Source: an uncultured Alphaproteobacteria bacterium
Lineage (GTDB): Bacteria > Pseudomonadota > Alphaproteobacteria > Rhizobiales > Aestuariivirgaceae
NCBI GenBank assembly: GCA_937870685.1
Contig: CALMZX010000144.1
Location: 859-64,858 of the forward strand
DNA: 64,000 nucleotides
Direction: 5' to 3'
This document shows, piece by piece, positions 18,423 through 30,400 of this stretch (positions are counted from its first letter, which is position 1; every line of letters starts with the position of its first letter). A program made the position numbers and the translations under genes. The notes beneath the pieces are model-generated. The model did no database searches and had not been told where the DNA came from. It saw only the letters and a list, made by a program, of their open reading frames with translations.

Positions 18423-18427
18423 ACGTC

Positions 18428-18530
18428 CTCCAGCTGCGCACGCACAGGATCAGATCACCCCGGCGACATCTTCGTGAACTTGCAAGATTTGCCGGGTGAT
18501 CAGATGTTCGTGTGAACGCAGTGGCGGAGT
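18428..18530 (-). ncRNA. Candidate rod-shaped small RNA (unassigned)
   Basis: The whole 103-nt stretch folds into one long imperfect hairpin. Its end coincides with the predicted +1 of a minus-strand TTGACA-N17-TAGAAG promoter. Strand is uncertain because G-U pairs favour the plus strand. Confidence 0.45.
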
Positions 18531-18537
18531 GTGCCTG

Positions 18538-18566
18538 CTTCTAGCGGAAGGCCTGCGCAGTGTCAA
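18538..18566 (-). promoter_or_regulatory. Sigma70-type promoter pointing into the VOC/kinase intergenic hairpin
   Basis: Minus strand: TTGACA (18566-18561), 17-nt spacer, TAGAAG (18543-18538), with an A-rich tract upstream. Confidence 0.55.
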
Positions 18567-18591
18567 GTATTTTTTCCTAGTTCGGAAATTT

Positions 18592-19494
18592 TCACACCGC
18601 CGCCAGGTGCCGGGCGAAGTCATTCGTTGCCATCAGGGTCTTGCAGCGGGTGAAGCGGTTCAAGGCATAGGCGGCGAAATCATCCGCCGGATTCCTGTTG
18701 GCGTGCTGGATCAGGCCCCAGAGGGTCCAGAGCAGGTCGCACATGGCCTTGTAGATCACCATGCGGCCATGGTCGGCGGCGGAAGGCTTCACGCCAAAAT
18801 AGGCGTGCAGCATCTCCATGTCCTGCACTTCGTCAAAGCCGCCTTCCACCGAAAGGTCACCGAGGTCCCACATGGGATCGTTCATGCCGGAGTATTCCCA
18901 GTCCACCACCCACATGCGTTCGCCCGTGTCGATGAAGTTTTCGCAGAGGGGATCGCAGTGGCAGGGCACCAGAGGGGCGGGATTGCGGGCCAGTGCCGCA
19001 CGGATGGTCTCCGCTTCCCGCACCACATCGTGGTAGCCATCCGGCAGGTCTACATCCTTGGTGGAGAGCACCCTCAGGTAGTCGTCGATCATGGCGAAGA
19101 GTTCGAAGCGGAAGGGAAACGAGCCGCCGGAGGTGTGCAGCTTGCACAGCACCTGTCCGGCGCGGGCGGGAGAACCCGTCCGTGTACGGAAGTTATCCGG
19201 TGACATGGTGACGGCTCCGGGGACGAGAACGGTCACCATCACTCCTGTTCTGGCGTCGGCGAAAATCACCTCCGGGCTCACCCCGGCGTCGGCGGCCACG
19301 CGGGCGGAGGCCGCCTCATTGTCGCGGTTGATGTATTCCTCCGTGCCTTCGCCCGGAATGCGCAGCACGTGGTTCCCCACCCGGTAAACCTTGTTGGTGA
19401 GGCCCCCCAGCCGTTCCACGGGGCCTCCATATGCGGAAAGTGCGGGGATGGTGCGCAGAACCGCGCGGGCGTGTTTTTCTTCTTCGGGCGTCAT
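18592..19494 (-). CDS. Choline/ethanolamine kinase-like phosphotransferase
   Basis: RLGGLTNKVY, VLRIPG, HCDPLCENF (Brenner-like motif), VDWEYSGMNDPMWDLG. Confidence 0.88.
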   Translation of the reverse strand: MTPEEEKHARAVLRTIPALSAYGGPVERLGGLTNKVYRVGNHVLRIPGEGTEEYINRDNEAASARVAADAGVSPEVIFADARTGVMVTVLVPGAVTMSPDNFRTRTGSPARAGQVLCKLHTSGGSFPFRFELFAMIDDYLRVLSTKDVDLPDGYHDVVREAETIRAALARNPAPLVPCHCDPLCENFIDTGERMWVVDWEYSGMNDPMWDLGDLSVEGGFDEVQDMEMLHAYFGVKPSAADHGRMVIYKAMCDLLWTLWGLIQHANRNPADDFAAYALNRFTRCKTLMATNDFARHLAAV

Positions 19495-19534
19495 GGGCAA
19501 AACGCTATCATGACAGAAACAAGTTTGGGAAGAG

Positions 19535-20179
19535 ATGATGACACAGGGTGATGGCGACAAGCACGACGGCTTCCTGGGGGCCGTTTACGACTCCAAGAGC
19601 ACAGACGATGTGGCGGCGCTTTATGACAAGTGGGCCGAAACCTATGATGCCGAGATGGCGCAGGCGGGCTACCGCCATCCCACCATCTGCCTCGCGCTCC
19701 TGTCGCGTCATCTGCCCCAGGGTAGCGCGCCGCTGCTGGATGCGGGGGCGGGCACGGGGCTCATCGGGGAGTGGCTGCAGATCATGGGGTATCCGCAGGT
19801 GGAGGCCCTCGACATTTCGGCAGGCATGCTGAAGGTGGCAGAGAAGAAGGGCTGCTACTCGGCCCTTCACGTACTGGCGCTGGGCGGGACCTTGCCTTTT
19901 GCCGGGAACAGTTTTGGCGGAGTCATCTCGGCGGGGGTGTTCACCTCCGGCCACGTGGGGGCGGAAGGTCTGGATGAACTGATCCGAATCACGCGTCCTG
20001 GCGGCGTCATCGTGCTGACGGTCAAGAACACCCTGTGGGAGGCGGGCTTTGCGGCGCGCATCGCCGAATTGGAATCGCAGGGCCTCGTCGCCCGCGCGGA
20101 AGAAACCGCTCCCTATGTGTCGATGCCGGGCGAAACCGGCACGACGCCAAGCCGCGGGCTTGTCCTGCGGGTTTGCTAG
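19535..20179 (+). CDS. Class I SAM-dependent methyltransferase
   Basis: YDKWAETYD, LLDAGAGTGL, ALDISAGML, SAGVFT motifs. Confidence 0.9.
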   Translation: MMTQGDGDKHDGFLGAVYDSKSTDDVAALYDKWAETYDAEMAQAGYRHPTICLALLSRHLPQGSAPLLDAGAGTGLIGEWLQIMGYPQVEALDISAGMLKVAEKKGCYSALHVLALGGTLPFAGNSFGGVISAGVFTSGHVGAEGLDELIRITRPGGVIVLTVKNTLWEAGFAARIAELESQGLVARAEETAPYVSMPGETGTTPSRGLVLRVC

Positions 20180-27469: not shown

Positions 27470-30400
27470 ATGAGCCGCTATGCCGAACTCGCCACAGCCA
27501 CGAACTTCTCCTTCCTGCATGGCGGTTCCCATGCCGAGGAACTGGTGTTGCAGGCCAAACACTTGGGGATCGCGGCGCTGGCCGTGACTGACCGCAACAG
27601 CTTTGCCGGAATCGTCCGGGCCCACGGGGCGGCGAAGGATGCGGACTTGCGCTTCGTGGTTGGCGTGCGGCTGGTGCTCGAGGACGGATGCGAACTGCTC
27701 GCCTGGCCCACGGACCGGCAGGCCTATGGCCGCTTGTGCCGCCTGCTCTCGCTGGGGCAACGGCGGGCGGAAAAGGGCGGCTGCATCCTCGCGCTGGCGG
27801 ATGTCTGTGAACATGCTGAGGGCACGCTCTTCGCCCTGCCACAGGCGCATGTGGCGCAGCTGGGGGACGTGCGGCGGCTGCTTCCGGCGCCACTCTATCT
27901 GGCGCTCTCCTGCCGCTTCGATGGCCGCGACCGCACCCGGCTGGCGGAGGCGGCCGCCGTGGCGCGGGCACAGGGCGCAGGCCTTCTGGCCGTGAATGAC
28001 GTGCTCTATCACCATCCGGACCGCCGCCCCTTGCAGGACGTGCTCACCTGCATCCGCGAGAAGGTGACGATTGCCGAGGCGGGCTACAGGCTGCAGGCCA
28101 ATGCCGAGCGGCATCTCAAGACGCCGGATGAAATGGCGCGGCTGTTCCGGGATTATCCCGAAGCGCTCGCCAACACGCTTGTGATCACGGAGGCCTGCCG
28201 CTTCTCGCTCGATGAACTGCGCTACGAATATCCGGAAGAGCCGGTGCCACAGGGCCAGGATCCGCAAGGCTATCTGGAACATCTGGCGCGGGAAGGTGCC
28301 ATGGAGCGCTATCCGCAAGGTGTTCCCGCCAAGGTGCGCCAGAACATCGCCAAGGAACTGGCGCTGATCCGCAAGCTCAACTACGCGCCCTACTTCCTCA
28401 CCGTTTATGACATCGTGCGCTTTGCCCGCAGCCTTGATCCGCCGATCCTCTGCCAGGGGCGGGGTTCGGCGGCCAATTCCACGGTCTGCTATGTGATCGG
28501 CATCACGGCGGTTGATCCCAACCAGATCGATCTCCTGTTCGAGCGCTTCATCTCGGAGGAGCGCAAGGAACCGCCGGACATTGATGTCGATTTCGAGCAC
28601 GAGCGGCGCGAGGAGGTGATCCAGTATCTCTACCGCCGCTATGGCCGGGAGCGGGCAGGCCTCGCCGCCACGGTGATCACCTATCGCGGGCGCTCGGCAC
28701 TGCGCGAGGTGGGGAAAGTGATGGGACTTTCGGAAGACGTGACCGGGGCACTCGCCGGCTCGGTCTGGGGCATGATGCCGGAGGAGATGCAGGAGAAGCG
28801 GCTGAAGGAGATCGGGCTTGATCCGGATGATCCGCTGCTCGCCCGCGTGCTGGAACTGACGGGCGAGATTGCCGGCTTCCCGCGCCATCTCTCGCAGCAT
28901 GTGGGCGGCTTCATCCTGACACGCGAGCGGCTGGACGAGACGGTGCCCATCGGCAATGCGGCCATGGAAGACCGCACCTTCATCGAATGGGACAAGGACG
29001 ACATTGACACGCTGGGCATGCTCAAGGTGGATGTGCTGGCCTTGGGCATGCTCACTTGCATCCGCAAGAGTTTCGAGCTGATCGAGGCCTGGCACGGGCA
29101 GCGCTACATGCTCGCCACCGTGCCGCGCGAGGACCGGACTGTGTATGACATGCTGTGCAAGGCCGACTCGGTCGGTGTCTTCCAGGTGGAATCGCGGGCC
29201 CAGATGAACATGCTGCCGCGCCTCAAACCGCGTTGCTTCTATGATCTGGTGATCGAGGTGGCGATCGTGCGGCCCGGCCCGATCCAGGGTGACATGGTGC
29301 ATCCCTATCTCAGGCGGCGCGATGGCATTGAGGCGGAGGATTATCCGGCACCGCATCCGGACTTCGGGCCGCCGGATGAATTGCGGCAGGTGCTGGGCCG
29401 CACCAAGGGTGTGCCCTTGTTCCAGGAGCAGGCGATGAAGCTCGCCATGGTGGCGGCGGAGTTCACACCTGGCGAACTGAACGAGTTGCGCAAGGCCATG
29501 GCCACCTTCCGGCGGCGCGGCACCATTGGGCGGCTGGAACAGAAAATGGTGAGCCGCATGGTGGAACGCGGCTACGATGCCGGCTTCGCGGCGCGCTGCT
29601 TCAACCAGATCAAGGGCTTCGGCGAATACGGCTTCCCGGAAAGCCACGCCGCGAGCTTCGCGCATCTGGTCTATGTCTCGGCCTGGCTGAAGCGCCACCA
29701 CCCGGCAGTGTTCGCCTGTGCGCTGCTGAATTCACAACCCATGGGCTTCTATGCCCCGGCGCAGATCGTGCGGGACGCGCGCGAGCATGGGGTTGAGGTG
29801 CTGCCGGTGGATGTGAGTCATTCGCAGTGGGATTCGGTGCTGGAGGAAAGGCCCCCCTCAGTCCTTCGGACAGCTCCCCCAACAAGTTGGGGGAGCGTGA
29901 TGAAACGCCCTCCCCCAGCTTTGCTGGGGGAGGTGCCCAACGGGCGGAGGGGGTCCCTTTGCCTGCGCCTCGGCTTTCGTGAGGTGGATGGGGTGCGGGA
30001 GGGGGATGTCGTGTCCATTCTCCCCTCCCCGCAAGGGCGAGGGAGGACAACAACACTGGCCGAAATGGCGGCGCTTCTCCCCCACTCCGCCCTCGAAAAA
30101 CTCGCTGCTGCCGATTGCTTCCGGTCGCTGGGTCTCGACCGCAGGCAGGCGTTGTGGGAGGTGACGGCGCTGGCCAAGGCGCGGACTCCCTTGCCGCTCT
30201 TCGCCCATGCTGATGCGAAGGAGCAGGGCATGGAAGCAGCGGTGCAACTGCCGGAGATGCCGCTCGCCGAGCATGTGGTCAACGACTACCAGACGGTGAA
30301 GCTGTCGCTGAAGGCGCATCCCATGTCCTTCCTGCGGGGGCGTTGTGCGGCTGAAAAGGTGACGGACAACGGCGTGCTCAAGTCGCTGCGCAATGGCCGC

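Follow-up and report, generated by a model that had tools for sequence, protein, structure and literature searches.

The kinase/VOC spacer and its origin

The window analysed here is a stretch of 64,000 nucleotides (contig C144:859-64858) from an assembly of 3.29 Mb in 155 contigs with 62% G+C. Within it a gene encoding a VOC/PhnB-like protein (PF06983; 17949-18422, plus strand) converges on a gene encoding a choline/APH-type kinase (18592-19560, minus strand). The 169 nt between their stop codons (18423-18591) are filled entirely by an element that reads on the minus strand, a promoter-like region followed by a 104-nt imperfect hairpin, the rod (18426-18529), which starts 4 nt past the VOC stop codon. 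As had been stated in the preliminary description, no protein gene follows in that direction: none was found on the minus strand below 18426, and the window copy has no co-directional gene downstream.

In a related genome (G055, locus L042) the stop codons of the convergent kinase and VOC genes are separated by 2 nt and the 169-nt spacer is absent. This genome is the only one to have kept the convergent VOC gene among the 23 genus genomes with the kinase, and it is the closest relative having the same gene pair, with amino-acid identities to the window of 83% for the kinase and 67% for the VOC protein. As judged from this comparison the spacer is a lineage-specific insertion of one complete copy of a module that also occurs elsewhere in the genus. 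By eye, the ends of the spacer (AAATTTCC... and ...GGAGGACGT) are not inverted repeats, and no duplicated flank relative to G055 was seen at the junctions. Among 50 copies in relatives the similarity extends from about 30 nt upstream of the -35 hexamer to a median of about +77. With these limits the window spacer consists of one module and about 25 extra nt, and it is these extra nucleotides that complete the long rod. For annotation the lesson is that this 'empty' spacer between convergent genes is a recent insertion and not an old terminator.

The promoter and the start region

Read on the minus strand, the promoter of the window copy has the sequence AAATTTCCGAACTAGGAAAAAATAC-TTGACA-CTGCGCAGGCCTTCCGC-TAGAAG-CAGG-CACACTCC... 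The -35 hexamer TTGACA (18561-18566), which is invariant or TTGACG throughout the promoter class, is separated by 17 nt from the -10 hexamer TAGAAG (18538-18543; GCTAGAAG with the two preceding bases), for which the class consensus is GCTAnnnn, and is preceded by an A-rich tract (AGGAAAAAATAC). The promoter had been described previously as near-consensus; this holds for the -35 hexamer and the spacing and fails at the -10, where TAGAAG lacks the last T, which is also the reason why a standard E. coli-type sigma-70 scan did not call the window promoter. The same TAGAAG is present in the promoters of the gene transfer agent (GTA, a domesticated phage) at three other loci (L116, L123 and L139), and the window -10 agrees with the one that over 100 related promoters of the genus have in common. 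The class -10 agrees likewise with GCTANAWC, the housekeeping consensus of Caulobacter.

The transcription start is predicted at 18530-18533 on the minus strand, a range that includes the +1 at about 18530 proposed earlier. The first bases form a conserved start region, Box A (CACACUCCGCCACUGCGUUCAC; 18512-18533, minus strand), which aligns with CAyACUCCAsmAwUGGGUC; this sequence opens every copy of the class, leaders of the first GTA gene included. A search by eye for a sigma-dependent pause element, that is a -10-like hexamer past the start, gave no consistent match.

Two further elements flank the -35 hexamer. Upstream, an inverted repeat TTTCC-N6-GGAAA (18570-18589, minus strand) runs into the A-rich tract (AAATTTCCGAACTAGGAAAAAA) and may serve as an activator site or UP-like element; at this position the arrangement aTTCCTa-N3-5-TAGGAAAATA is kept in most copies. 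Inside the 17-nt spacer, abutting the -35, lies the palindrome CTGCGCAG (18553-18560), which is found in all four promoter copies of this genome and lengthens to ACTGCGCAGT in two sister copies. It may be bound by a GafZ-like factor or by a repressor; the GafZ-binding palindrome of Caulobacter has the corresponding place (PMC11150451). The near-consensus -35 together with the A-rich tract suggests a strong constitutive promoter, whose control might call for a repressor and not an activator.

A promoter class shared with the GTA cluster

The strict class pattern, TTGACR-nYGnnCRn-N8-10-TAnnnn-N4-9-CAYnnTCC, was matched in 42 of the 61 genus genomes, with 0 to 9 copies per genome, while the reversed pattern used as a control gave practically no matches (~0) across the genus genomes. 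The window copy is among the matches (G000:C144:19384-19424(-)). The common architecture comprises, in order, the upstream TTCC-N6-GGAA repeat, the A-rich tract, TTGACA, a GC-rich palindrome, a GCTAnnnn -10 and the start CAyACUCCAsAAAUGGGU.

This genome contains four copies, the one in the window and one each on contigs C6, C64 and C70. The copy on C70 is divergent from a LysR gene and precedes the first gene and the terminase of an RcGTA-like cluster encoding terminase, portal, capsid, Phage_tail_2, DUF2460 and Gp84_N/BR0599 proteins. The first GTA gene was used as a probe to retrieve the upstream regions from 29 other genus genomes, and the same promoter was present ahead of this gene in most of the resulting 30 loci. 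The palindrome differs between species (ACCGTACGGT, ACCGCGCGGT, AGCGCGCGCT and AsCGTACGGT, with ACTGCGCAG in this genome) yet stays palindromic, and it is uniform within each genome; this is the pattern expected of a site that co-evolves with one DNA-binding protein.

Other features were noted around these copies. At the start of the C70 cluster (L002:1420-1545; ~27690-27810 of the contig) a canonical terminator, GGGCCGCGGCAGAGCGGCCUUUUU, lies between the promoter and the first GTA gene; behind this gene come terminase, portal, capsid, tail tube, DUF2460, Gp84_N/BR0599, a 1291-aa host-specificity-like protein and a lysozyme. In some relatives (L120, L122, L123, L125 and L126; G014, G020, G017 and G003) two tandem class promoters, 0.2-1.5 kb apart, are found upstream of the first GTA gene. 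The copy on C6 (L003:1500-1625; C6:5940-6065) is situated after argG and before a LysE-type exporter gene, and the same arrangement is found in G024 (L085) and G007 (L080). The LysE-type leader contains the conserved hairpin GGCCUGCUGACAcauccyGUCAGCrGGCC followed by GUUCUAUUU just upstream of the ribosome-binding site, and because of compensatory changes across the three species it has the look of an attenuator or antitermination gate.

The copy on C64 lies after nrdR and before a gene for a secreted Rv2525c-like protein (L004:1240-1545). The spacer between these two genes has grown to about 300 nt, while in G009 their stop and start codons overlap. The added sequence holds the promoter copy, a palindromic repeat of the CCCCCTC/GGGGGAG type and a second promoter-like site, TTGACA-N19-TATAGT. 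The nrdR-side promoter copy is a second lineage-specific insertion in this genome.

Folding of the rod and the conserved hairpin

The rod of about 103 nt, pairing end to end, that had been proposed for this spacer was recovered as the 104-nt hairpin, in which long lower stems join the start region at the 5' end to the tail at the 3' end. On the minus strand it folds with -47.5 kcal/mol (36 pairs, 2 of them G-U) and on the plus strand with -53.1 kcal/mol (41 pairs, 4 G-U). Comparison of the 169-nt spacer with dinucleotide shuffles gave z values of -3.0 for the minus and -3.3 for the plus strand. The 110-nt windows of the genome average -37.7 ± 7.3 kcal/mol and 1.9% of them reach -53, so the stability of the rod alone is not extreme for this 62% G+C genome; the case for the rod is made by homology and covariation, not by energy. 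A U-tract is absent on either side of the rod on both strands, as had been remarked before for the minus strand, and no terminator-like site was called within 18423-18591.

The conserved part of the rod is only its top 44 nt, so that the end-to-end pairing described earlier is a property of the window copy. Closed with its own 3' tail the window copy folds with -48.5 kcal/mol versus a mean of -33.9 kcal/mol with the tails of other copies, a cost of 14.6 kcal/mol where the family average is 1.8 kcal/mol (p = 0.05). These tail swaps ruled out the end-to-end rod as a family trait.

The conserved core, Box B (18456-18499, minus strand), matches the covariance model R1, built from 24 type 1 cores, over the full model length with 56.5 bits (E = 1e-15), and it is the only match of R1 in this genome. 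It consists of stem P1 (18491-18497 with 18458-18464; about 7 bp in the family), stem P2 (18484-18488 with 18468-18472; 5 bp, GUCUU/AAGAC in the family) and the 11-nt loop GCAAGUUCACG (18473-18483; 11-12 nt in the family). A further 100 promoter copies were fetched, and of the 118 non-redundant copies examined 51 carry the conserved hairpin; its core ends at +70 relative to the start in the window copy and at +55 to +83 elsewhere. Type 1 hairpins have the form CAAC-AA-GUCUU-GCAAGCyCAmG-AAGAC-GAC-GUUG, with GAGCCCAUCAkG as the loop in a type 2 variant. Across species the stems vary, but GCAAGCyCAmG in the loop and its neighbours AA and GAC hardly change. The window core reads CGGC-AA-AUCUU-GCAAGUUCACG-AAGAU-GUC-GCCG; relative to the consensus, CAAC/GUUG has become CGGC/GCCG and GUCUU/AAGAC has become AUCUU/AAGAU, and by three double changes 11 of the 12 model pairs remain intact in this diverged copy.

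The covariation analysis in related genomes, which had been proposed as a check, showed that the stems covary. In the alignment of 54 matches, which was itself made by R1, 90.2% of the cells are paired and 9 of the 12 pairs show double changes; the covariation score in this R1-made alignment is 0.267 versus 0.125 for shuffles (reached by none of 500) and at most 0.110 with slid partners. A model-free count for P1 is weaker, with 73.4% paired and a score of 0.291 versus 0.160. The preliminary description had left the functional strand ambiguous. The orientation of the hairpin to the conserved promoter is fixed in all 54 homologues and the wobble pairs are biased to the promoter strand (36 G-U versus 18 A-C), which settles the strand as minus.

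A small-protein gene was ruled out by frame analysis: no reading frame is conserved, the NUG of Box A stands in the three phases relative to Box B in 10, 10 and 10 copies, the stop positions are scattered among copies and in the window copy a TGA interrupts the frame ahead of the core. The resemblance of CAAC/GUUG to the R''/R' cores of integron attC sites was likewise dismissed, for these sequences form the inner stem, there are no arrays and a promoter is attached.

The preliminary description had found no match to SRP, 6S, tmRNA, RNase P, tRNA or 5S motifs. No Rfam 15 family was matched by the element at E values up to 10, or by 33 related loci (16 + 14 + 3). The rod is single-copy in its own genome (BLAST with word size 7, and nhmmer) and was not found by BLAST in 40 relatives. 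Among 401 genomes of the order R1 matched only in this genus, apart from one marginal hit (E = 6e-4). A scan of species-representative genomes with the arm pattern gave 16 matches in unrelated phyla; similarity did not extend further in any of them, and the best (L079) looks like coding sequence. A metagenome scan with a 22-nt core gave a single match in an unrelated context, both type 1 and type 2 cores were absent from viral contigs, and in the full-text literature the core sequence matched nothing but unrelated primers.

With regard to copy number, then, the rod is unique in its own genome and the module is dispersed in relatives, with up to 9 promoter copies. Dispersed copies had been taken beforehand as the mark of a repeat; those found here are 75-93% alike and covary like an RNA, which is not what near-identical repeats do.

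Some loci depart from the common form. In L170, L192, L219 and L220 the 11-nt loop is replaced by an extra hairpin of 30-40 nt (e.g. GUCUCGGGCAAAUGCCGCUAUCAGCGGCGUCCCACGGAGAC) with the P1/P2 context retained. Moreover, a second conserved RNA of about 100 nt, CAUUCUCCAAAAUUGUAAGU...GAGCGCAAGG-hairpin-CAUCGCUGAAAUCCAAU...GGUAAAACAC, was seen in other species behind the same promoter and start at L232-L237, L246, L133, L142 and L127 (G012, G056, G048, G021 and G051). As it has no Rfam match it may be another new RNA family using the same expression platform.

Genes behind the module

In the relatives a coding gene matched by Pfam is found within a few hundred nt downstream of about 20 of the 51 copies. 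These genes often belong to type II toxin-antitoxin systems (ParD twice, HicA/HicB, Gp49 with an HTH_3 partner, Fic/DOC, a FitA-like protein and MazE); others are accessory genes, for instance those for FRG, DUF2971 and DUF5343 proteins and a transposase. At least 8 of the 51 copies have no plausible downstream gene, and a terminator-like site follows the module in only 7 of 51. A near-identical module stands ahead of different genes in L163 and L198 and thus behaves as a unit separate from its cargo. One module is placed directly 3' of a tRNA gene and another adjoins the RNase P RNA gene (L160:20-90 and L165:729-791), neighbourhoods that may be insertion hot spots.

Function of the module

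We conclude that hairpin and promoter together constitute one copy of an undescribed promoter-plus-structured-RNA module of about 150 bases that, by its sequence relationships, is scattered through the genus; membership of the window element in this family is well supported by the same comparisons. Transcription of the module from the minus strand, as predicted, is likely. RNA polymerase would start at about 18530-18533 and produce a rod-shaped RNA of about 100 nt, and a transcript that is not stopped would enter the VOC gene from its 3' end in antisense orientation. Part of the small RNA reading given in the preliminary description stands, as the element is non-coding, structured, unannotated and preceded by a promoter of its own; as a dispersed module it is not the unique local sRNA gene which that reading had in mind. 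Antisense transcription into the VOC (PF06983) gene, also put forward then, would be only a by-product, and the idea of a 3'-UTR element has to be given up as the family members sit 5' of genes.

The best explanation, which we hold to be somewhat on the probable side, is that the element is a solo, portable GTA-type promoter with a leader RNA on the minus strand that forms a structured gate close to the promoter. The promoter would be co-regulated with this cluster by a single DUF6456 (GafZ/GafA-type) protein through the palindrome in the spacer, and the hairpin, at about 35-80 nt past the start, would act as a promoter-proximal barrier or as a processing signal. In relatives it would gate the small accessory operons behind it, often toxin-antitoxin pairs; having no gene behind it, the window copy would be an orphan leader or a free small RNA. 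This explanation draws on the Caulobacter precedent, on the palindrome at the same place, on the promoter heading the GTA cluster, on a DUF6456 gene, on structured leaders and on terminators. The genome has a single DUF6456 (PF20057) match, at C76:6528-6935 with 119.8 bits, in an ORF of 257 aa. The first 110 nt behind class promoters have more structure than control windows (mean z -1.19 versus -0.22, p = 5e-6), an excess found also in copies without the conserved hairpin (p = 5e-4). In addition, two of the copies in this genome have terminator-like hairpins behind the promoter, ahead of the first GTA gene in one case and of the LysE-type gene in the other. A MucR/Ros-type regulator gene is encoded on the same strand about 670 nt away from the DUF6456 gene (L124:1390-3300), whose upstream region contains no class promoter.

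By analogy a GafZ-like antiterminator may control the module, and its link to GTA antitermination is put forward here as a hypothesis. A GafZ regulon of many promoters sits badly with the cargo, which is mostly toxin-antitoxin or accessory genes and not GTA genes, and with the single target promoter of GafZ in Caulobacter (PMC11150451). Moreover, the near-invariant loop is not explained by a mere barrier role and calls for a specific partner.

A different reading is that the module produces a free trans-acting small RNA or a protein-binding decoy RNA, whose loop and internal loops recognise a target. Its promoter would then be strong and constitutive and would work without regard to the GTA. 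The constancy of the loop and of the flanking AA and GAC against varying stems would suit such an RNA, as would the 11 of 12 pairs preserved by double changes in the window copy and the want of a gene behind it and behind several relatives. However, most copies have no terminator, about 20 of 51 are followed closely by a Pfam-matched gene, and a search of the genome with the rod (BLAST, word size 7) revealed no complementary target, which makes this explanation rather improbable. The position of the rod between convergent genes, 4 nt past the VOC stop codon, would instead be that of a bidirectional terminator or a 3'-end stabiliser of the VOC and kinase mRNAs, with the promoter-like sequence incidental; read-through from the kinase would also include the rod, and the sequence folds on both strands, slightly better on the plus. 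We regard this as very unlikely, since both strands are without a U-tract, G055 manages with a 2-nt spacer, a terminator has no need of a conserved loop sequence, and the 54 homologues keep a fixed promoter orientation and distance and are usually found upstream of genes and not between convergent ends.

The insertion itself raises the question of a selfish miniature element. Its hairpin would then serve mobilisation in the form of single-stranded DNA, the promoter would merely be carried along facing outwards, as in the Correia elements of Neisseria, and no function would be left for the RNA. Discrete boundaries speak in its favour, the module filling exactly the gap between stop codons that abut in G055, and so do the dispersal of the copies (0 to 9 per species), the second lineage-specific insertion behind nrdR where G009 has a stop/start overlap, the tRNA, transposase and toxin-antitoxin genes among the neighbours and the L163/L198 pair. 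Yet neither terminal inverted repeats nor a target-site duplication was seen at the junctions, no transposase or recombinase is consistently linked, and the copies, 75-93% alike, are not near-identical. Their stems change by compensatory pairs, the wobble pairs are biased to the promoter strand and the asymmetric promoter half is as well conserved as the hairpin. We therefore consider a purely selfish element unlikely.

Returning to the GTA-type promoter with a gated leader, a bolder version of it would be that a GTA late promoter has turned into a portable cassette whose factor-loading palindrome and nut-like Box A/Box B leader plug toxin-antitoxin and accessory operons into GTA antitermination. 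The hairpin would then be the RNA part of an antitermination complex or an off-switch, and the window copy a gene-less one giving a regulatory RNA only. This version is offered as a speculation that we consider unlikely.

If transcribed as predicted, the module would be a new family of structured RNA and would show plainly how a promoter can propagate, since a complete late-type promoter and its first transcribed bases have been copied to many loci with one operator-like palindrome per genome. It could serve as a system for asking how GTA or phage-derived control recruits host accessory genes, notably toxin-antitoxin pairs, and whether GafZ-type antiterminators use RNA elements besides DNA sites.

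Comparison with known systems

The genome contains a REP-like palindromic family (CCCCCTC...GGGGGAG) whose members, like the rod, are hairpin-forming intergenic insertions of about 100 nt, and one of these repeats lies in the leader behind the nrdR promoter copy. The rod shares no sequence similarity with this family and is single-copy with its own promoter, and so its membership of the family was ruled out.

Correia elements of Neisseria are bounded by terminal inverted repeats, duplicate a TA target and occur as near-identical copies. Like these elements and the 'putative mobile promoters', the module is short and dispersed (about 100-160 bp), brings a promoter to new sites and would yield transcripts that fold into hairpins. 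Unlike Correia elements it is asymmetric, with a promoter on one side only, has no end repeats and has covarying stems.

In Caulobacter crescentus the promoter PgtaT has a palindromic GafZ-binding element between the -35 and the -10 (Tran and Le 2024, PMC11150451). There GafZ has one target promoter, terGTA is placed after the first gene, and the factor enables RNA polymerase to pass long imperfect inverted repeats (PMC11150451). PgtaT and the module are alike in being sigma-70-type promoters that head a GTA cluster and in having a GC-rich palindrome between the -35 and the -10; moreover, Caulobacter, like this genome, encodes a DUF6456 (GafZ-type) protein. The long imperfect inverted repeats downstream are a barrier overridden by the antiterminator, and the hairpin of the module may play a like part. 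However, GafZ has one target whereas the promoter class of the module reaches 9 copies per genome, terGTA is situated past the first gene whereas the hairpin lies within the first 80 nt, and the sequences of the two palindromes are unrelated. The hairpin also has a sequence-conserved loop, unlike the Caulobacter system.

Late control in lambdoid phages relies on the promoter PR', a Q-binding element between the -35 and the -10, a 6S leader RNA and the terminator tR'. The module resembles PR' in combining a probably strong promoter with a candidate factor site in the spacer, in the short structured leader RNA made by default (predicted in the case of the module) and, at one copy of the class, that of the GTA, in having particle genes downstream. 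A Q homologue was not found here and, unlike the PR' system, the hairpin of the module has no canonical terminator after it. The module differs further from PR' in being dispersed and often standing ahead of toxin-antitoxin genes.
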